From positions 322-64,321 of the forward strand of contig JAISSC010000225.1 of the NCBI GenBank assembly GCA_031273305.1: 64,000 bases of DNA. The letters run 5' to 3'. The DNA is from Flavobacteriaceae bacterium. GTDB lineage: Bacteria > Bacteroidota > Bacteroidia > Flavobacteriales > Weeksellaceae. The notes below the pieces were generated by a model, which made no database searches, was not told the origin of the DNA, and worked only from the letters and a program-made list of their open reading frames with translations. This document shows positions 39,712 to 55,922 of the stretch, one piece after another; position 1 is the first letter of the stretch, and every line of letters starts with the position of its first letter. Made by a program: the position numbers and the translations under genes.

Positions 39712-39856
39712 TCAGATTGTCATTATCAGTTCTTTTTTCACTAATTCCCAAGCTACAACATCATCATACTCAACTTATCATATCTTGCTCAATTTGAGCG
39801 TAGCTTGGCCACGGAGCATTTTCTTTCCATTCTTCAATGTATCGTCTCGGAATCAT
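39712..39856 (-). pseudogene. AbiEii/AbiGii-type nucleotidyltransferase toxin remnant (large internal deletion)
   Basis: ATG overlaps the antitoxin stop (ATGA); MIPRRYIEEWKENAPWPSYAQIEQDMIS* followed out of frame by VEYDDVVAWELVKKELIMTI*. Confidence 0.75.
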
Positions 39857-40659
39857 AAATCATTCTCTATTATCACATTAACATCTACTTTCCAGTCTTT
39901 GTCAATATTCCCCTGCTTAGGCGAAACTACGGATAACAAGATATTTTGAGTTGCTTTATCTTTTAAAGCTCGTTGTATAGACGTAGCCAAATCCTGCCTG
40001 TTGAATACTTTATCGTATAAATATCCCAATCGTTGTATAGATGAGATTTGAGGATATCCGGATGCTATTTTATACATTACGGAAGGCTTTATTTCTTCGA
40101 TAAGTTCTCCCAAAATTGGAACTATCCGGGAAATTCCACCTATTTTTCCATTGAAAGACATAAAATCCAATGCTGTAAGTTCCGGTCGCGAAACATTGAA
40201 ATATCCGGCAGCAGAATTTTTCTTCACAATTCCATCTTGTTTCCATGCATTTCGGACAAGAAAATTTATCCGGGTATTATTTTCAACGATAGCTCTCATC
40301 GGGCGTTGTACTATCACCTGATACTCCATTGGTTGCTGATGCGCTGCACCATACAACGACGCTGCGGTGTATAGACCCAGATAATAATCCCGCCTTAAAT
40401 ATTTCATTAAATCATCAATGTACAGAAAGATGGGGAGAGAGCCATTTTTTGCATATTCCGGAGGAAGTACCACATAAAAATCTTTACGAATGATGGCAAT
40501 CTTATTGGCTGCATGCAATCGGTATATCTTCCTGCGAATGGCTTGTTCGGAGGAATCAAACACCTGATTTAACTCTTTAAATGTAAAGGAAAACCGTCCT
40601 TTTGAACGTATTTTCAAAAGATAATCATCTACATATTCGTATTTCCTTGCTATTTCCAC
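39853..40659 (-). CDS. Type IV toxin-antitoxin AbiEi-family antitoxin
   Basis: N-terminal winged HTH, FYVVLPPEY, YYLGLYTAASLYGAAHQQP, PELTALD, QRLGYL, WKVDVN. Confidence 0.85.
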   Translation of the reverse strand: MEIARKYEYVDDYLLKIRSKGRFSFTFKELNQVFDSSEQAIRRKIYRLHAANKIAIIRKDFYVVLPPEYAKNGSLPIFLYIDDLMKYLRRDYYLGLYTAASLYGAAHQQPMEYQVIVQRPMRAIVENNTRINFLVRNAWKQDGIVKKNSAAGYFNVSRPELTALDFMSFNGKIGGISRIVPILGELIEEIKPSVMYKIASGYPQISSIQRLGYLYDKVFNRQDLATSIQRALKDKATQNILLSVVSPKQGNIDKDWKVDVNVIIENDL

Positions 40660-44803: not shown

Positions 44804-45241
44804 ATGAAGAAAGAAGATTATTGGGAGGGAATATATTGGTCGAAAAAGGATAAAACGATTCTTCGTCTTATTTTTGGCACTCCGTTGGTATTAGGTATTA
44901 TCTTTATAATTTACAATTTCGTTTTTGGTAAAAGTGGAAAAGAATCGTTTTTAGAAGAAAAGAGTAAATTATATTTTAATGGAAAAATAGTATCTGAATA
45001 TAGACAGTGGGAGCATAATATTAAGGTAGCAGTTTTAAATGATGGATATGAGTATCCACTTATGGGAGAATGGGAAAAATTTATCCATATAGGAGATTCA
45101 ATAAGTAAGGAGAAAGACAGTTTATATATAATCCTGATAAATGGAACAACAGGAGAAAGGCTTAAATTGGATTACAGAGAAGCAGTAAAGAAATGGAGAA
45201 GTGATTTTATACAAAGAAGAATGAGGGAAGAAGCAAAATGA
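44804..45241 (+). CDS. Single-TM hypothetical protein downstream of tRNA-Glu
   Basis: 145-aa ORF; one N-terminal hydrophobic helix, soluble beta-rich C-terminus (IHIGDSISKEKDS). Confidence 0.75.
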   Translation: MKKEDYWEGIYWSKKDKTILRLIFGTPLVLGIIFIIYNFVFGKSGKESFLEEKSKLYFNGKIVSEYRQWEHNIKVAVLNDGYEYPLMGEWEKFIHIGDSISKEKDSLYIILINGTTGERLKLDYREAVKKWRSDFIQRRMREEAK

Positions 45242-45486: not shown

Positions 45487-48400
45487 CTAAAGTCGGGTTT
45501 TTATAATCTGTTCTACTACTTCCGGATTAACCAAAGTAGAAATATCCCCTAAACCGTCCAGTTCATTGGAAGCGATTTTTCTCAATATCCTTCGCATAAT
45601 CTTCCCGGAGCGGGTTCTTGGCAAACCGGGAACGAACTGAATTTTATCCAGTTTTGCAATAGGACCAATAGTACGGGAGATTCTCGCCTGTATCTCTTTT
45701 TTTACATCTTCTTCATTCTCCGGGCTTTCATAAGTAATAACAAAGGCATACAGAGCATTTCCTTTAATATCATGAGGAAAACCTACCACAGCCGATTCTG
45801 TAATCAGATAGTGTTCATTGATTACGTTTTCAATCGGGGCTGTTCCCAGATTATGACCGGATACTATAATTACATCATCCACCCTGCCCGTAATACGGTA
45901 ATTACCATTAGTATCCCGTAATGCTCCGTCTCCGGTAAAGTATTTTCCTTTATAGGCAGAGAAATAAGTATCTATATACCGTTGGTGGTCTCCATAAATA
46001 GTCCTTGCCATTCCTGGCCATGGAAACTTAACGCATAAATTGCCTTCTCCATTGGCAGATTCCAACTCCACTCCCTCACTGTCTACCAGACAAGGCTGAA
46101 TACCCGGAAGCGGTTGGGTTGCAAAGGTTGGTTTGGTTGTAGTAATCCCGGCTAAAGGAGCAATCATAATACCTCCTGTTTCCGTTTGCCACCATGTATC
46201 TGCAATCGGACAGTTGCCTTTTCCTATCTTATCATTATACCAATGCCATGCCTCTTCATTAATCGGTTCTCCTACGGAGCCTAATACCTTTAATGAACTC
46301 AAATCATGATCTTCCACAAAATGCAGAGGCTGAGCTTCTAAAGACCGTATTGCCGTAGGAGCCGTATAGAAATGAGTTACTCTGTATTTTTCCACTATCG
46401 CCCAGAATCTTCCGAAATTCGGGTATGAAGGAGTTCCTTCAAACATAATGGAGGTTACTCCGGAGCATAACGGAGCATATACGATAAACGAATGTCCGGT
46501 GATCCATCCAATATCTGCGGTACAGAAATATACATCGTCCGGTTCTCCGATTTGGAATACGTTTTTAAACGAATAGGTAGTATAAACCATATATCCTCCG
46601 CAAGTGTGAACCATTCCTTTCGGCTTCCCTGTGGAACCGGAAGTATAAAGGATAAATAGCGGGTCTTCCGCATCCATTTCTTCTGCCGTGCATTCCGGGC
46701 TTGCTTCTTTCATCAGGTCATGCCACCACAGGTCTCGGTTAGGAGCCATCATTATCGGCTTGTTGGAGCGGTTATATACAATAACACTTTCTATCGACGG
46801 AGTAGTTTCCAGAGCTTCGTTGGCAATTCCCTTTAAATCTACATATTTATTTCCTCTGTAATTTCCGTCACAGGTAATTAACATTTTACATTCGGAATCA
46901 ATAATTCTGGCGGCTAATGCTGAGGAGGAGAATCCCGCAAATACTACGGAATGTACGGCTCCTATGCGTGCACAGGCTAACAGACTGATCTCCAATTCGG
47001 GAATCATGGGGAGATAGATACATACCCTGTCTCCTTTCCTTATTCCTTTGCCTTTCAGCACATTTGCCAATTTGCAGACTTCTGCATGTAGTTCTTTATA
47101 GGTAAACGTACGATTCGGTTCTTCGGGGTTATTGGATTCCCAGATTACGGCGATTTTATCCGGATTGTGTTTCAAATGACGATCCAGACAATTTTCGGTA
47201 ATATTCAGCTTACCTCCCGTAAACCATTTGAAATCCGCTTTTTCAAAGTTGTATTCCAATACGGACTTCCACAGTTTTCTCCATGTAAAGGTCTGGGCAA
47301 TTTCTCCCCAAAACTGTTCGGGTTGATCCAGACTTATATCGTAGATTCGTTCGTAATCCGTTCTGTTCTTCACTACTAAATCATCAATGGTCTTTTCCCT
47401 GACGGCTACTTTGGTAACATTTTCTAACTCAAAATCCTGTTGAATTTCATAAATAACGGATGGATTTTTAGTTGTATCCGGAATGGAAAATTCCTCTCCG
47501 TCTGCAATCTTTCGGATAATATCCCGCAGAATATTTCCTGATTTTGTCTTTGGCAACCGTTTTACAAAAACCACCTGCTTTAAATCGGAATTGAACCCCA
47601 GTTTTTCCACCACCCTTCTTCTCAACTCTTCTGTTAGCCGGAAAGGGTCGGCTTGTTCAAAGGCTTTGATAACCGCAACGGCTACCACTGCCTGTCCTTT
47701 GATGGCGTCTTTGATACCTATAACGGCAACTTCTGAAATTTTCGGATGACTTTTTATAATGTTCTCTATTTCCAACACGGAAAGTCTTTGCCCTGCCACA
47801 TTGATTATATCTCCTAAACTTCCTGTGGTATAAAAGTTTCCGTTCGTATCCTGAAATCCGGCACCTCCGGTATTATAATATTCAACTAATTTCTCCGAAA
47901 CAAACTGATCTTCAGGCTTGTTATTCAATATAAAACTGAAAGAACCGGGAGGAAGCGGTTTGGATGCCGCAATAATTCCCATTTTTCCGTCTTCTGCTAT
48001 CGTTCCTTCTCCTGTTACTATCTTCATATCGAAACCTCTTACGGGTTTCCCTATCGAATCGGGAAGTATATCCGTTTCTCCTGCATTTATCTCTTTCCCC
48101 AATAACGGCCAGGCTCCTTCGGAATGCCACCATAAATTGGTAATGGCTACTCCGGTCTCATTTTTCAGCCATTCTATGACCTCTTTCCCCGAATCTTCGC
48201 CTGAAAGTACAATCCGATTGAGGCTGTCCTGAGAATAGCGACGTAGGTATTGAACTTCCGTATCTGCATTCATAATCTTTCTCAGATTGGTTTGCGGAGT
48301 GAATAAAACATTTACCTTATTTTCCTGAATAATTTTCCAGTATGAGCCGGGATCGGGAGTACGGGTGGAACTTCCCTCATAGATTATGGAGGGGCTACGG

Positions 48401-49275
48401 TTAATCATCGGGGCTAAAACCATAAAACTATGGCTTATTCCTCCTCCTATGTCGAAAGCCGTAAAAAGGGTTTCGTCCGGCTGACATTTTATACTATTGG
48501 TCATTACTTCTTTTAAAGCCACTGCATAATCTCCTGTATTATAAACGGCTCCTCTGGCATTTCCTTTGACTCCCGAAGTATATAATATGTAAGACGGAGA
48601 ATCTGATCTTACTTCTACATAGTTTTGCGGAGCGGAGCTTTCAACCAATTCATCAAAATCTATATCATAAGAATTATTGGCATGCATAAATCCTAATTTC
48701 CTGTTGTATAACAGTACATGTTCGGGAGAATGACCGGAGCGGGAAATGGCTTTATCCACAATCGGTTTATAGGAAATAATCCTGTCAACATCAATGCTTG
48801 AAGTGGCTGTTATGATTAGTTTTGGCTTGCAATCTTCGATACGGAGAGTGAGTTCACTGGCAGAATACCCGCTGTAAACTACGGAAAATGTAATACCGAG
48901 CCTTGCACAGGCTAAAATTGAAAAAGCGGTTTGCGGAATCATCGGCATATATATCAACACGACGTCTCCTTGTTTTAGCCCTAGTTTTTTAAGTCCACCC
49001 GCTAATTTCTCTACCTGCTCTTTTACCTGATTATAGGTATATTTTGCCTTCGTCTGAGTTACCGGTGAATCGAAAATAAACGCAATATTTTCTCCGTATC
49101 CGTCTTCGATATGCTTATCTATACATAAATAAGATAAATTGGTTACTCCGTCTCCAAACCAGACCTCTTTTCCTTCCTCACAGGAATAAAAAGTCTGTGG
49201 AGGACTAAACCATGATATTTTATTCGCTTCATTCATCCAGTACTCCTGAATGGTCGTTAATTCCTTTGTTTCCAT
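45487..49275 (-). CDS. acs: Tandem acyl-CoA synthetase: degenerate PrpE/Acs-like module fused to an intact acetyl-CoA synthetase
   Basis: C-module has YTSGSTGKPKG, WWQTETGG, TGDGA, GRVDD, PRTRSGK; N-module has the same order of motifs but they are altered. Confidence 0.9.
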   Translation of the reverse strand: METKELTTIQEYWMNEANKISWFSPPQTFYSCEEGKEVWFGDGVTNLSYLCIDKHIEDGYGENIAFIFDSPVTQTKAKYTYNQVKEQVEKLAGGLKKLGLKQGDVVLIYMPMIPQTAFSILACARLGITFSVVYSGYSASELTLRIEDCKPKLIITATSSIDVDRIISYKPIVDKAISRSGHSPEHVLLYNRKLGFMHANNSYDIDFDELVESSAPQNYVEVRSDSPSYILYTSGVKGNARGAVYNTGDYAVALKEVMTNSIKCQPDETLFTAFDIGGGISHSFMVLAPMINRSPSIIYEGSSTRTPDPGSYWKIIQENKVNVLFTPQTNLRKIMNADTEVQYLRRYSQDSLNRIVLSGEDSGKEVIEWLKNETGVAITNLWWHSEGAWPLLGKEINAGETDILPDSIGKPVRGFDMKIVTGEGTIAEDGKMGIIAASKPLPPGSFSFILNNKPEDQFVSEKLVEYYNTGGAGFQDTNGNFYTTGSLGDIINVAGQRLSVLEIENIIKSHPKISEVAVIGIKDAIKGQAVVAVAVIKAFEQADPFRLTEELRRRVVEKLGFNSDLKQVVFVKRLPKTKSGNILRDIIRKIADGEEFSIPDTTKNPSVIYEIQQDFELENVTKVAVREKTIDDLVVKNRTDYERIYDISLDQPEQFWGEIAQTFTWRKLWKSVLEYNFEKADFKWFTGGKLNITENCLDRHLKHNPDKIAVIWESNNPEEPNRTFTYKELHAEVCKLANVLKGKGIRKGDRVCIYLPMIPELEISLLACARIGAVHSVVFAGFSSSALAARIIDSECKMLITCDGNYRGNKYVDLKGIANEALETTPSIESVIVYNRSNKPIMMAPNRDLWWHDLMKEASPECTAEEMDAEDPLFILYTSGSTGKPKGMVHTCGGYMVYTTYSFKNVFQIGEPDDVYFCTADIGWITGHSFIVYAPLCSGVTSIMFEGTPSYPNFGRFWAIVEKYRVTHFYTAPTAIRSLEAQPLHFVEDHDLSSLKVLGSVGEPINEEAWHWYNDKIGKGNCPIADTWWQTETGGIMIAPLAGITTTKPTFATQPLPGIQPCLVDSEGVELESANGEGNLCVKFPWPGMARTIYGDHQRYIDTYFSAYKGKYFTGDGALRDTNGNYRITGRVDDVIIVSGHNLGTAPIENVINEHYLITESAVVGFPHDIKGNALYAFVITYESPENEEDVKKEIQARISRTIGPIAKLDKIQFVPGLPRTRSGKIMRRILRKIASNELDGLGDISTLVNPEVVEQIIKTRL

Positions 49276-49709
49276 CTTTTTGATTATAGTTTATTTGTTT
49301 GTTTTCAATAATTTTAACCTAAAAATATGAATATACTGTAAAAAAACCAAAAAAAATTTAATTATTACATCACTTATTCAAAAAAACTATTTGTTTTTTA
49401 GATATATTTTTTATGGAATTTATTGTTTTCCTTAATATTTATACCTGTTTTACATGACAAATATCATAAAAAAATAAGGTTTTCCGATTATTATCCAATT
49501 TTAATTTTATTAATTTACATTAATAAAGCTGCCTTCTTTATTAAATTAAGGTAAAAAAGCATCTGAAATAACAAATGCTTTTCAATTTGATGGTATATGT
49601 ATAAAACGGTAGCATATGGAGTATAAAGGTATTTATGGATTTCCCGGATAAAAAACGGATGAATTTGAGTTGGGGTAGGTTTAAATAACGTGAGTTCGGG
49701 ATAAGAACG

Positions 49710-49740
49710 TTGCTCGGCTTTGCTTCGCAAAGCCGAGCAA
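49710..49740. repeat. Perfect GC-rich palindrome
   Basis: ttgctcggctttgc-ttc-gcaaagccgagcaa, 14-bp perfect stem. Confidence 0.85.
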
Positions 49741-49879
49741 TATATTGATATACAATAAATTAGCCTGCGAATCCCGTTAGGGATTCAAGCTCGGTAGAAT
49801 GAGGGTAATCGTCATGGTGTCCGGCGTGCCGTCACCTTATATTTGCATTATGATAGGTACGCGACAATGATAACGCACA

Positions 49880-49995
49880 GAGATGCCCAAGTTGGGACGT
49901 CCCTACACGGATAGCCCGACCCGATAGTGGCACGCTCAAATTAAAAAACAAGTGTATAACCTAACTAAATGTTGCTCTCATTTGTTGAATCTGAG
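49880..49995 (-). repeat. Second copy of the Flavo-1-like/REP composite element
   Basis: Reverse complement aligns with 42240-42343, including a 31-nt identical core and a weaker upstream flank. Confidence 0.75.
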
Positions 49996-50022
49996 AGGTT
50001 TTAATGCATAAAGTTTTCGTGA

Positions 50023-51342: not shown

Positions 51343-51545
51343 TAATTTTTATTATTGCAAAACAAAAATATACATTTTACAGATTATTCCGCATATCTAT
51401 TTATAAAATTATAAAAATTAACTCCTTAATTATCCCCGACAACGCTATTTATCCATCATCACATCTTTAGAAATATCCCTTATTTTAGTTTATCTTACCC
51501 TCCTCCCCGACTCTTCCAATAAAAAATTTCGTAAATTTGTGCTAT

Positions 51546-54500
51546 ATGAAATTTTTAGTTTTTGACACCGAAACCACAGGTTTGCCTGCCAATGCCGGCG
51601 CACCTGTTTCCGATTCCGACAACTGGCCTCGTATGGTACAGATTGCATGGCAGTTGCACGATGAAAACGGAAACCTTATCGAAAACTACGACTACATCAT
51701 AAAACCGGAAGGATATGACATTCCTTTCAATGCTCAAAAAATTCACGGAATCAGCACTGAAAAAGCCTTAGCGGAAGGTCATGACCTGAAAACCGTACTG
51801 GAACAGTTTCATGCGGTTTTGGCAGAAAATCCTGTTCTGGTAGGGCAAAATATCTCTTTCGACATTCCGATCGTAGGAGCCGAATTTTATCGGAAATCAC
51901 TGAAAAACAACATTGCTGATCTGCCTTTAATTGATACGGCGCAGGAAGGAACCAACTTTTGTGCCTTACCCGGAGGAATGGGAGGAGGATTTAAATATCC
52001 CAAACTTTCGGAACTATACAAAAAACTGTTCGGACACAACTTTGCTGAGGCTCATAACGCTGCCGCAGATGTAAATGCCACTGCACAGGCTTTTTGGGAA
52101 TTGGTTCGTCTACGACAGATAAAGCCTAAGAAGCTACACTTTACCGAAGAACAACTAACCGCCTTTATTCAAAATCATCCGGAACCTTTCCGGGCTTTTG
52201 ACATCGTAGTTCGTCAACAGGTAAAAGATTTTAATGCAAACCTTAAAAACAAAAGAGACGGAGGCAAAAAATCTTTAGATAATATCAATTTTTCTCATTT
52301 TTTCCATTTTCACAACCACTCCGTTTACTCTATCCTGACTTCCACCAGCAAACATTCCGACCTCATCAAAAAAACACAGGAATACAACATGCCCGCTCTG
52401 GGAGTCACCGATTCGGGAAACTTGATGGGAGCCTTTGCTTTCCTGAACGAGATAAAAAAAGCCAACGACAGCATCAAGAACCACAACAAAAAGGTGGAAG
52501 CCGGAGAACTTTCCGAGCCTGTGAAAAAAGAAATACTTCCCATCATAGGTTGTGAATTATACATATCCGAAAATTATCTCCAGAATAAATTTACCAAAGA
52601 TAATCCTGACCGTAGATTCACCCAGATTTTACTGGCAAAAAACCATACCGGATTTAAAAACCTGTCCAAACTTTCTACTTTGGGTTATAAATTAGGACTG
52701 TATGCCGGATACCCTCGTATCGGAAAAGAACTGATTGAACAATATAAAGAAAACCTGATTGCAACTACCGGAGGACTGTCTTCCGAAGTTCCAAGTCTTA
52801 TCTTGAACGTAGGAGAAAAACAGGCAGAAGAAGCCTTCGTGTACTGGCATAACCTGTTTGGGGAGGATTTTTATGTAGAACTACTCCGCCATCACTTGGA
52901 TGAAGAAGAACACCTCAACAAGGTATTACTCAAATTTGCCGAGAAATACGGGGTAAAAATACTGGCTCAAAACGATACTTTTTATATCAACAAGGAAGAA
53001 GCGGAAACACAGGATATTTTGCTCTGCATCAAGGATGGAGAAAAGCAATCTACCCCGATAGGAAGAGGATTCGGGAAACGATTCGGGCTTCCGAACAACG
53101 AGTACAATTTCAAGTCTCAGGAAGAAATGGCGGCTTTGTTTGCGGACATTCCGGAAGCTATTGAAAATTTTGAAGATTTCATCAAAAAATTTGAGCCTTA
53201 TGAATTAGCCAGAGAAGTTTTACTCCCTAAATTCCATATTCCTGATGAATTTGTCAATCCTCAGGATGAAACCGATGGAGGAAAACGAGGGGAAAACGCC
53301 TATTTGGCTCACCTCACTTGGGAAGGTGCCGTAAAACGGTATGGAGACAACCTGTCCGATAAAATTAGGGAACGTCTGGAGTTTGAACTTGAGATTATTG
53401 CGAAAACAGGCTATCCCGGATATTTCCTGATCGTACAGGATTTGACTTCTCAGGCGCGTAAGATGGGAGTTTCCGTCGGACCGGGGCGGGGTTCTGCTGC
53501 CGGTTCCGCTGTGGCTTACTGTATAGGAATTACCAATATAGACCCGATTAAATACGATCTACTATTTGAGCGTTTTTTAAATCCGGACAGGGTATCCCTC
53601 CCCGATATTGATATTGATTTTGATGACCGCGGACGTGAAAAAATTATCCAGTGGGTGGTCGATAAATACGGAGAAAATCAGGTAGCTCAAATCATCACCT
53701 ACGGCACACTTGCCGGACGGTCTGCAATCCGGGATGCCGGACGGGTGCTGGAACTTCCTCTGAGCGATACCGACCGCCTGTCTAAAAACCTGCCGTTCAA
53801 TCTTAACCTGACCAAGCTAAAGAATAGGTCGGAAGCGGATTTACAGAAAGACTTCGGAAGAGAAGAGATCGAACCGGTATTGCTGCTGAAACAAAAATTT
53901 GAATCTGATGATTTGGAAGGAAAGGTAATCCAAAATGCATATCATTTGGAAGGAAGCCTACGCAACACCGGAGTTCATGCCTGCGGGGTTATTATTACTC
54001 CGGAGGATATTACCAATCTGATTCCGGTGGCTGTTGCCAAAGATTCTACTCTGTTGGTGTCTCAATTCGACAACTCCGTAGTAGAAAGTGCCGGATTACT
54101 GAAAATGGACTTTTTGGGTCTGCGAACTTTAACTATCATCAGTGACACCATAGAAATTATTAAAAAACGTAAAGGAAAAGACGAAGCTCCGAATCCGGAT
54201 GAATTTCCTCTGGATGATGAGCAGACGTACAACATATTCAAAACCGGGAACACCATCGGAATTTTCCAGTATGAATCGCCCGGAATGCAAAAACACCTAA
54301 AGGCACTCCAACCGGATAAATTCGAGGATTTAATTGCCATGAATGCGCTATATCGTCCGGGACCGTTACAATACATCCCGAACTTTATCAACCGGAAACA
54401 CGGAAAGGAAGAAATCACCTACGACTTGCCTGATATGGAGGAATATCTGGCAGATACATACGGAATTACGGTTTATCAGGAGCAGGTGATGCTACTTTCC

Positions 54501-55922
54501 CAAAAGCTGGCAGGATTCAGCAAGGGTGATGCCGACGTCTTGCGTAAAGCGATGGGGAAAAAACAAATCGAAGTTTTGAACAAAATGGAGGCTAAATTCC
54601 TTGATGGAGCCATTGAACGAGGACATCCGGAAGAAAAACTAAAAAAGATATGGGAAGACTGGAAAGCCTTTGCTCAATATGCTTTCAATAAATCTCATTC
54701 CACCTGTTACGCCTTTATCGCTTTTCAAACTGCCTACCTGAAAGCTCATTATCCGGCAGAATTTATGGCTACATTATTGAGTAACAACTTAAACAACCTC
54801 AGCACGCTTACTTTCTTTATGGAAGAATGTAAAAATATGGGACTGGAAGTATTAGGGCCTGACATAAATGAAAGTGATTATGAGTTCACCGTCAACGAGA
54901 AAGGAGCAATCCGCTTCGGTATGGGAGCAATTAAAGGAATCGGGGAAAATGCGGTGGAAGCTATTATCAATGAACGTCAGAAAAATGGGAAATACAACGG
55001 TTTATTTGAATTTTTTGAAAGAACCGACCTAAAGAACATTAATAAAAAAGTATTGGAAAATCTGGTACTAGCCGGAGCTTTTGACGAACTGTCCGAAAAC
55101 AACCGGGCACAGTTCTTTATGGAAGAAAACGGTTCTACGACCATAGAAAAATTGGTGCGCTATGGAATTGCCTATCAGGATAATAAAAGTTCCGCACAAA
55201 ATTCTTTATTTGGAGACCTGGGGGATGAAGGTTTTGATGTGATGAAGCCGATTATTCCGAAAACTGAGGAATGGAGTGCGATGTATAAGTTGAGCAAGGA
55301 AAAAGAAGTGGTAGGAATCTACATTTCGGCACATCCGATGGATAATTACAAGTATGAAATTGCCCTGATCAAACCTAAAAATATTGCGGAAATCAATGAA
55401 CACAAGGAAGATTACATTAATAAAGAAGTCTATATCGCAGGGATGATTACCCGGTTTGAGCATCGGGATGTGGATAACGGAAGAACCCGAATGGCTTTTT
55501 TTGATGTGGAAGACAAAACCGGTACTATTTCTCTGAAATTGAAAAAAAACTACCTCGATTTCCAAAAATACCTGATGCCCAATTTATTTGTCCTGATAAA
55601 AATTACCGTCGGGGTGATACGGGATAACGGTTTTGTGTATACCAACGTTCTGAATATGGAAGAATTGAGCGAAGTGATCAGTAAACATACCAAGAAACTA
55701 ACCATCAAAATTAATCTGGAAGAACTGGATGAAAACACACTGGTTTCCTTAAACAGAATTTGTGACCAGAACGCCGGAGCAAAAGATATTCATTTTGAAA
55801 TTGTTGATACAAAAAATAATCTGTTCCTGCAATCTTCGTCTATGAACAAACGGGTAAATATTACCAAAGAAGTGCTGGATGAAATTAAGGATAAATTACT
55901 TCTGGATTTTAAATTGAATTAG
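51546..55922 (+). CDS. dnaE: DNA polymerase III alpha subunit with N-terminal DEDDh 3'-5' exonuclease domain
   Basis: FDTETTG...HNAAADV exonuclease; PHP HFHNHS; GRGSAAGS, PDIDIDF, KMDFLGL, YAFNKSH. Confidence 0.97.
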   Translation: MKFLVFDTETTGLPANAGAPVSDSDNWPRMVQIAWQLHDENGNLIENYDYIIKPEGYDIPFNAQKIHGISTEKALAEGHDLKTVLEQFHAVLAENPVLVGQNISFDIPIVGAEFYRKSLKNNIADLPLIDTAQEGTNFCALPGGMGGGFKYPKLSELYKKLFGHNFAEAHNAAADVNATAQAFWELVRLRQIKPKKLHFTEEQLTAFIQNHPEPFRAFDIVVRQQVKDFNANLKNKRDGGKKSLDNINFSHFFHFHNHSVYSILTSTSKHSDLIKKTQEYNMPALGVTDSGNLMGAFAFLNEIKKANDSIKNHNKKVEAGELSEPVKKEILPIIGCELYISENYLQNKFTKDNPDRRFTQILLAKNHTGFKNLSKLSTLGYKLGLYAGYPRIGKELIEQYKENLIATTGGLSSEVPSLILNVGEKQAEEAFVYWHNLFGEDFYVELLRHHLDEEEHLNKVLLKFAEKYGVKILAQNDTFYINKEEAETQDILLCIKDGEKQSTPIGRGFGKRFGLPNNEYNFKSQEEMAALFADIPEAIENFEDFIKKFEPYELAREVLLPKFHIPDEFVNPQDETDGGKRGENAYLAHLTWEGAVKRYGDNLSDKIRERLEFELEIIAKTGYPGYFLIVQDLTSQARKMGVSVGPGRGSAAGSAVAYCIGITNIDPIKYDLLFERFLNPDRVSLPDIDIDFDDRGREKIIQWVVDKYGENQVAQIITYGTLAGRSAIRDAGRVLELPLSDTDRLSKNLPFNLNLTKLKNRSEADLQKDFGREEIEPVLLLKQKFESDDLEGKVIQNAYHLEGSLRNTGVHACGVIITPEDITNLIPVAVAKDSTLLVSQFDNSVVESAGLLKMDFLGLRTLTIISDTIEIIKKRKGKDEAPNPDEFPLDDEQTYNIFKTGNTIGIFQYESPGMQKHLKALQPDKFEDLIAMNALYRPGPLQYIPNFINRKHGKEEITYDLPDMEEYLADTYGITVYQEQVMLLSQKLAGFSKGDADVLRKAMGKKQIEVLNKMEAKFLDGAIERGHPEEKLKKIWEDWKAFAQYAFNKSHSTCYAFIAFQTAYLKAHYPAEFMATLLSNNLNNLSTLTFFMEECKNMGLEVLGPDINESDYEFTVNEKGAIRFGMGAIKGIGENAVEAIINERQKNGKYNGLFEFFERTDLKNINKKVLENLVLAGAFDELSENNRAQFFMEENGSTTIEKLVRYGIAYQDNKSSAQNSLFGDLGDEGFDVMKPIIPKTEEWSAMYKLSKEKEVVGIYISAHPMDNYKYEIALIKPKNIAEINEHKEDYINKEVYIAGMITRFEHRDVDNGRTRMAFFDVEDKTGTISLKLKKNYLDFQKYLMPNLFVLIKITVGVIRDNGFVYTNVLNMEELSEVISKHTKKLTIKINLEELDENTLVSLNRICDQNAGAKDIHFEIVDTKNNLFLQSSSMNKRVNITKEVLDEIKDKLLLDFKLN

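Follow-up and report, generated by a model that had tools for sequence, protein, structure and literature searches.

Why would an acetyl-CoA synthetase (Acs) be preceded, in one and the same polypeptide, by a second full-length synthetase module in which the catalytic motifs are altered? The question is raised by a gene on a 64,000-nucleotide stretch of DNA (contig JAISSC010000225.1, positions 322 to 64,321 of the forward strand, assembly GCA_031273305.1), in the following termed the window, which stems from a metagenome-assembled genome (MAG; G000 in our set) of a Flavobacteriaceae bacterium assigned to the Weeksellaceae. From its motifs we consider it probable that this gene, termed copy A, encodes a working Acs with a full-length, folded and catalytically dead PrpE-like N-terminal module that is kept as a non-catalytic partner. 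The dead module is most likely needed structurally, for folding, stability or quaternary arrangement, and may modulate the Acs module besides.

Gene architecture and assignment of the two modules

On the minus strand, positions 45487-49275 of the window form a single uninterrupted ATG-to-TAA open reading frame (ORF) of 1262 codons plus stop, and the Pfam domains ACAS_N, AMP-binding and AMP-binding_C each match twice along the 1262-aa product. A preliminary description of the locus had claimed one unbroken 1262-aa ORF with two adenylate-forming modules joined at ~47390; ORF and Pfam analyses agree with this and show two complete modules of the short-chain acyl-CoA synthetase type that meet near aa 628/629 (~nt 47391). 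The parts of the gene are as follows.

45487..49275, minus strand: whole fusion gene (type A), from ORF and Pfam
47392..49275, minus strand: N-module, aa 1-628, PrpE-like fold with apparently disabled catalytic motifs, from profile score, motifs, AlphaFold2 (AF2) model and omega (ratio of non-synonymous to synonymous substitution rates)
45490..47391, minus strand: C-module, aa 629-1262, predicted canonical AMP-forming acetate-CoA ligase (Acs), from TIGR02188, NF001208 and motifs
47356..47430, minus strand: inter-module linker, ~aa 616-640, lowest conservation of the gene (invariant fraction of the tail 0.36 versus 0.56 module-wide)
45601..45603, minus strand: codon of Lys1225, the A10 lysine of the Acs module (PRTRSGK), equivalent to S. 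enterica Lys609 by motif alignment

The C-module passes the Acs equivalog threshold with both models (TIGR02188, 930.9 bits, cut-off 724.95; NF001208, 933.4 bits, cut-off 657) and keeps all canonical ANL core motifs from A3 to A10, i.e. the A3 P-loop YTSGSTGKPKG (aa 877-887), the acetate-pocket Trp (W414 equivalent), A7, A8 and A10. Its sequences YTSGSTGKPKG, DTWWQTETGG, YFTGDGA, GRVDDVIIVSGHNLGT and PRTRSGK are the same as in stand-alone Acs of the family. The A10 lysine is the catalytic and acetylation-regulated residue of Acs. By sequence, the C-module is thus a full member of Acs as exemplified by the S. enterica enzyme (1pg4/2p2f; TIGR02188), i.e. a predicted acetate-CoA ligase. A typical Acs, however, consists of one ~650-aa module, whereas here an extra 628-aa N-terminal paralogous module is present that lacks the catalytic residues.

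Both in sequence and in structure, the nearest relative of the N-module is PrpE, the propionate/acrylate-CoA ligase of Dinoroseobacter shibae (5gxd; NF007815/TIGR02316). The N-module misses the PrpE threshold with both models (NF007815, 481 bits versus a cut-off of 955; TIGR02316, 435 versus 827). Intact N-type relatives, which keep all PrpE/Acs catalytic motifs, reach 709-719 bits with the PrpE model, ~235 bits more than the N-module but likewise below the cut-off of 955, and they are therefore better described as PrpE-like than as PrpE. Given its equivalog score and its catalytic motifs, we suggest that the N-module should be called neither PrpE nor an active ANL enzyme.

Catalytic motifs of the N-module

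We aligned the N-module with S. enterica Acs (2p20 and related entries), PrpE 5gxd and 15 intact N-type modules. All eight core motifs are altered in 5/5 orthologues of the type-A gene (clade A) and canonical in 15/15 intact N-type modules. The replacements are listed below; where coordinates are given, they refer to the minus strand, and the remaining entries stem from motif alignment.

48550..48582, minus strand: P-loop (A3) YTSGVKGNARG, aa 232-242; clade A (n=5) YTSGVKG[N/S/K]ARG, intact modules (15/15) YTSGTTG[K/S]PKG
Acyl pocket: DIGGGISH, intact D[VIF]GW[IVA]VGH
A5a motif (Acs YTAPTAIR): TPQTNLR, intact [TSV]APTA[FIM]R
GE motif (Acs VGEPIN): SGEDSGK, intact AGE[RK]CD
48115..48132, minus strand: A5, NLWWHSEG (WWHSEG aa 382-387), intact DHWWQTE, WWQTE[T/S]
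47857..47871, minus strand: A7, NTGGAG (TGGAG aa 469-473), intact [TSA]GDG; ribose-binding Asp (S. enterica Acs D500 equivalent) lost
47809..47823, minus strand: A8, TTGSLGD (GSLGD aa 485-489), intact [TS]GR[LVI]DD; Arg515 and hinge Asp517 equivalents lost
A8 loop: AGQRLS, intact [AS]GHRLS
CoA-binding Arg584 equivalent: Val, intact Arg
47533..47553, minus strand: A10, PKTKSGN (aa 575-581; Asn581 codon 47533-47535), intact PKTRSGK; catalytic Lys replaced

Five pairs of diverging N- and C-module motifs, together with Asn581 at 47533-47535, had been quoted in the preliminary description, and every pair was found exactly as quoted. The changes in the acyl pocket, TPQTNLR, SGEDSGK, AGQRLS and the Val at the Arg584 equivalent extend that list. 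Published work speaks for the importance of several of these positions: the acyl-chain range is set by the pocket Trp, the YxxGD motif is key to ATP binding, and the A8-loop Gly, described as strictly conserved, is thereby assigned a proposed part in opening the tunnel for pantetheine (PMC10455477). Unlike PrpE, the N-module has no equivalents of the P-loop lysines, D500, R515, D517, R584 and K609, while it retains Glu386 (E417 equivalent), Arg497 (R526 equivalent) and the A8-loop Gly.

The extent of the replacement is evident from the 189 columns that are invariant in the 15 intact N-type modules: clade A keeps 106 of them and replaces 55 in all five members. As a control, the N-module of the sister paralog (see below) has replaced 11 of 230 invariant columns, so that the losses in clade A are far beyond chance. 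Among the 55 all-clade replacements, 37 lead to a new fixed residue and 18 sites are now variable; taken together, the replaced sites are 67% invariant within clade A compared with a module average of 56%. The variable sites include the equivalents of Lys609, Arg515 and Asp500, the A10 lysine position being occupied by N/S/T/S/E and the D500-equivalent site by G/G/G/A/G in the five orthologues, which is a signature of release from catalytic constraint. Lacking the P-loop, A7 Asp, A8 Arg plus hinge Asp and A10 Lys features of active ANL enzymes, the N-module would count as a pseudoenzyme, that is, a homologue of an active enzyme without essential catalytic residues.

Conservation, selection and fold retention

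The type-A gene is present in full length in five genomes of the genus (G000, G001, G002, G003 and G008, the last a single-contig genome), while a sixth, G004, contains a 305-aa C-terminal fragment at a contig edge that is 96% identical to one of the full-length orthologues. One orthologue carries the NCBI label Apibacter sp. HY039, Apibacter being a member of the Weeksellaceae. Compared with the full-length orthologues in the four other genomes, the N-module is 68-85% and the C-module 80-91% identical. With the Goldman-Yang (GY) codon model, clade-A omega comes to 0.063 (N-module) and 0.036 (C-module), pairwise dN/dS of the N-module lies between 0.05 and 0.11 (Nei-Gojobori method, NG86), and in the closest pair the N-module has a dN of 0.09 and a dS of ~1.25 next to a C-module dN of 0.047 (NG86), the omega values being approximate because dS is saturated (>1). 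Amino-acid change in the N-module thus stays an order of magnitude below synonymous change. Indels are few and short, and conservation is even throughout, the small C-terminal subdomain included; the invariant fraction within clade A amounts to 0.56 for the N-module and 0.74 for the C-module. The N-module is maintained by purifying selection over five species.

The fold is retained as well. An AF2 model of the N-module, built from a 31-row alignment, has a mean confidence (pLDDT) of 84.8 and a predicted TM score (pTM) of 0.84, and superposes on PrpE 5gxd with a TM score of 0.88 and on S. enterica Acs with 0.85. The best sequence match in the PDB is again 5gxd (E 1.5e-130, 35% identity). Model and Pfam matches together show a two-domain Acs/PrpE fold with ACAS_N extension. 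No stand-alone relative of 345-1099 aa with more than 45% identity to the dead module was present in a collection of 5.8 billion proteins, so that within these bounds the dead module is known only in fused form. Neither an N-truncated form nor a stand-alone Acs of the type-A lineage was seen in the genus.

The preliminary description had proposed that the N-module is a retained pseudoenzyme free of frameshifts, a proposal that would have lost its ground if the fusion were unique to one assembly or the N-module evolved neutrally. Five full-length genes and a fragment in a sixth genome speak against the former, and an omega of 0.063 with dN so far below dS points to purifying selection instead of the latter. 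Leaving aside the candidate roles that it named (allosteric acyl-CoA/CoA sensor, oligomer scaffold, shield against acetylation), the proposal of retention agrees with the open frame of ~625 codons and with this selection regime.

Origin of the fusion

Among 200 sampled genomes, a stand-alone PrpE-like gene adjoining acs is the common arrangement in the family, and the stand-alone PrpE-like proteins are 53-62% identical to intact N-type modules. Genome G020 features an especially telling arrangement (L037:1002-4838, junction 2904-2935), in which prpE-like and acs genes share a reading frame and are split only by one TAA and nine codons. Judging from this sequence, the fusion would form anew if that one stop codon were changed. 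Other genera of the family, a second family of the same order and metagenomes contain fusions (1272-1294 aa) whose two modules both have canonical motifs. Those from Weeksellaceae/Flavobacteriaceae (P0006, P0011, P0013-15; G036, G107, G121, G048) share module order, linker position and length with the type-A gene and are its phylogenetic parents; in contrast to it, both of their modules are canonical, and a disabled N-module is found only in the Apibacter type-A clade. As intact two-module fusions exist in other genera, the fusion must be older than the degeneration and was originally bifunctional. Genus g10 contains both a fused gene with a 1284-aa frame (G121, L042) and an unfused pair (G104, L044; 60-62% identical to the query N-type), and the family has thus seen fusion or fission of this pair repeatedly.

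An origin from a prpE-like gene and a neighbouring acs gene that fused had already been suggested in the preliminary description. Adjacency as the common state of the family and the one-frame pair of G020 bear this part out; the order of events needs refinement, since a fully active fusion preceded the pseudo-module, which arose only after the whole fusion had been duplicated.

Duplication and the sister copy B'

The genome from which the window stems contains a second fusion, copy B' (P0009, 1274 aa), on contig C138 (L007 8074-11898, minus strand). In module trees, the N-module of copy A is sister to that of B' (support 98/97) and the C-module of A is sister to that of B' (support 100). The congruence of N- and C-module trees indicates that the whole fusion was duplicated in the ancestor of the genus. 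The stem branches differ conspicuously: for the N-module they measure 1.1 substitutions per site in A versus 0.14 in B', and for the C-module 0.095 in A versus 0.21 in B'. Within clade A the N-module evolves ~1.8x faster than the C-module. The N-module of copy A has therefore gone through a burst on the stem, be it by positive selection or by relaxation, followed by renewed constraint.

Copy B' has the same architecture as copy A and shows the mirrored pattern in a milder form. Its N-module is intact (719 bits with the PrpE model, omega 0.049), while its Acs module evolves faster (omega 0.069) and is derived, scoring 859 bits with the Acs model (cut-off 725). Its P-loop reads Y[ST/D][SPA]E..G (Gly to Glu), its pocket GWL[A/P]G (Ile-Thr to Leu-Ala) with the Trp414 equivalent changed to Tyr/Phe, and further derived motifs are TGD[V/I/A/Q] and VS[D/N][H/Y], in the latter of which the tunnel (A8-loop) Gly524 equivalent has become Asp/Asn. 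In P0009 itself SGHNLGT has turned into SDHRLST, with the pocket Trp replaced by Tyr and the A8-loop Gly by Asp. The derived changes in the Acs module are common to 7/7 members of the B' sub-clade, and from these sequences the module may be adenylation-only, re-specialised or partly dead.

The two copies are unevenly distributed in the genus. Both are present in G000, G001, G003 and G004, copy A without B' in G008 and G002, and copy B' without A in G007 (97% complete). In four further genomes of the genus (g1; G005, G006, G009 and G010, 99-100% complete), no Acs/PrpE-like match was obtained at E<=1e-30 with the N-module as query, and short-chain acid activation thus seems to be dispensable and patchy in the genus. 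Contamination of the MAG as the source of the second paralog was also considered and is ruled out, because the complete or low-contamination genomes G001 and G003 carry both copies; furthermore, the nearest relative of each copy comes from the same sister genome.

Subfunctionalisation presupposes a bifunctional ancestor whose duplication, a single event, gave rise to both copies, and this is what the congruent trees and the intact outgroup fusions indicate. With respect to complementary loss, the loss in the N-module of copy A is clear, while the C-module of B' is derived yet above the Acs cut-off, with the catalytic Lys in place.

Why is the N-module retained?

Tying these observations together, we propose that adjacent prpE-like and acs genes fused by loss of the intervening stop, giving a protein with two intact catalytic modules, and that this whole fusion was duplicated into A and B' in the ancestor of Apibacter. 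In copy A, a burst in the N-module then removed the equivalents of the P-loop lysines, acyl-pocket Trp, ribose-binding Asp, Arg515, hinge Asp, Arg584 and A10 Lys before the module returned to strong purifying selection, while in copy B', located on another contig, the N-module stayed intact and the Acs module became derived. Such a course could be explained by structural entrenchment: if the linked modules had become mutually dependent in folding, stability or assembly, either activity would be dispensable after the duplication, though not the domain itself. Structural entrenchment is the most economical reason for the retention of the N-module.

Among the other explanations, an assembly or annotation artefact, be it through a chimeric contig or through a stop or frameshift overlooked where the modules join, might come to mind for a window taken from a fragmented MAG (229 contigs, 84% complete), but its probability is negligible, as the same unbroken junction is found in five independent assemblies including the single-contig genome G008, and also in many type-B fusions from other genera and metagenomes. 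That the N-module is a functionless remnant decaying toward deletion would fit the drift at the former catalytic positions and an evolutionary rate about twice that of the Acs module (compare the dN values and invariant fractions above); it is nevertheless highly improbable for a frame of ~625 codons that has stayed open in five species at dS >1.2 and dN/dS ~0.07, with merely a few short indels and no truncated or Acs-only form of the lineage seen in the genus. Scarcely more credit can be given to the idea that the N-module has kept enzymatic activity, on a non-canonical substrate or by a non-canonical chemistry, which would leave the protein bifunctional. Strong purifying selection over the whole module, the retained fold and the conservation of Glu386, Arg497 and the A8-loop Gly are in line with it, but every motif that defines ANL adenylation is altered, the PrpE score has dropped from ~715 to 481 bits, and the site of the universally required A10 Lys varies in a way unlike a catalytic residue.

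A more serious alternative, though still an unlikely one, is a neofunctionalised sensor, in which the N-module would serve as a ligand-binding allosteric domain for acyl-CoA, CoA, a nucleotide or a short-chain acid that gates the fused Acs, much as a kinase is gated by its pseudokinase domain. By analogy, Acs-type pockets accept regulatory nucleotides (PDB 5jrh, Acs with cAMP), and several traits of clade A would suit a sensor: constraint was restored after the stem burst, 37 of the 55 replaced sites became fixed to new residues over five species, the P-loop is still glycine-rich and basic (VKGxARG), and the pocket has been opened by the exchange of Trp/Ile/Val for Gly-Gly-Ile. On the other hand, the module has lost the equivalents of D500, R515, K609 and R584, the residues that bind the CoA 3'-phosphate and the ribose and phosphates of ATP; three of these positions by now differ from species to species, and conservation of the replaced sites is close to the module average, not markedly above it. 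The idea of a CoA sensor in particular is weakened because the Arg584 equivalent has been lost together with the ATP-binding residues. Somewhat more doubtful still is an extension to both copies, according to which the linked modules form an obligate intramolecular pseudo-heterodimer with the dead module as allosteric regulator, such that a former PrpE, now a sensor, would gate the Acs in A and a former Acs would likewise gate the PrpE-like ligase in B', with the activation of acetate and of propionate (or a related acid) cross-regulated through the pseudo-modules.

Several points weigh against our preferred reading of a working Acs with a structurally required dead partner. Catalytic inactivity of the N-module is something that we infer from its motifs, and a structural or regulatory contact between the modules is a proposal; a predicted complex of the large subdomains (aa 1-488 versus 629-1132) had a score of 0.00 in a prediction made with no controls and speaks neither for nor against contact. 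The long branch of the N-module of copy A could be misplaced by long-branch effects, but the short-branched C-module tree returns the same A/B' topology. With dS saturated, the robust part of the selection argument is the contrast in dN, which is twice that of the partner module and far below dS. The mirror image in B' is the weaker claim, as the Acs module of this copy keeps, besides its score of 859 bits, the equivalents of the catalytic Lys, Asp500 and Arg515, and its sequence may reflect altered specificity rather than death. Finally, the occurrence of B' alone in G007 and of A alone in G008 and G002 shows that a genome can have one copy without the other.

That a dead module can be tethered to a live paralogous one is in itself a well-known concept. 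In the JAK JH2-JH1 tandem of pseudokinase and kinase, a dead module is covalently tied to a live paralogous one, and eukaryotic DIP2 is said to contain two AMP-binding/FAAL-like domains. These proteins belong to unrelated lineages and subfamilies, and the likeness is one of analogy only. In full-text literature searches we found no description of a bacterial Acs fused to a full-length pseudo-synthetase, nor of the flavobacterial fusions considered here.

Genomic neighbourhood

Copy A is surrounded by genes for a folC-like Mur ligase, aspartokinase and dnaE, and copy B' by NUDIX, Nramp-Usp, purD and HMG-CoA synthase genes. Genes for a short-chain-acid transporter or a CrbS-type kinase were found near neither copy A nor copy B', and the neighbouring genes give no functional hint for the fusion. 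Four members of the genus have a sirtuin (SIR2) gene, and none was found in the 84%-complete MAG containing the window; this distribution does not discriminate with regard to the idea that the N-module shields the Acs module against acetylation. Features flanking copy A or located elsewhere in the window are the following.

49276..50022, minus strand: AT-rich intergenic region upstream of the fusion gene, presumed to contain a promoter of its own (putative, from sequence)
44804-45241, plus strand: 145-aa ORF directly downstream of the fusion gene and convergent with it, no Pfam match; the region has strong GC skew and low GC (~0.30)
51537-55922, plus strand: DNA polymerase III alpha of 1461 aa with an RNase_T-type 3'-5' exonuclease domain N-terminal to the PHP domain (Pfam), a fused proofreading-polymerase architecture
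39853-40659, minus strand: 268-aa ORF with AbiEi antitoxin C-terminal domain (Pfam)

Significance

Acs is a central and heavily studied enzyme, and the ANL superfamily serves as a model of domain-alternation catalysis. The family described here offers a compact natural series that leads from unfused neighbours via a bifunctional fusion to duplicated fusions with opposite modules degenerating, and all stages are present in cultivable or sequenced relatives. The series bears on the question of why dead domains persist after fusion, be it by structural entrenchment or by new regulation, and on whether subfunctionalisation acts on modules inside one polypeptide. There is also a practical side. In databases these fusions are labelled simply 'acetate--CoA ligase', a label that hides the second module, live or dead, and could mislead the reconstruction of propionate and acetate metabolism in Apibacter and related Weeksellaceae.

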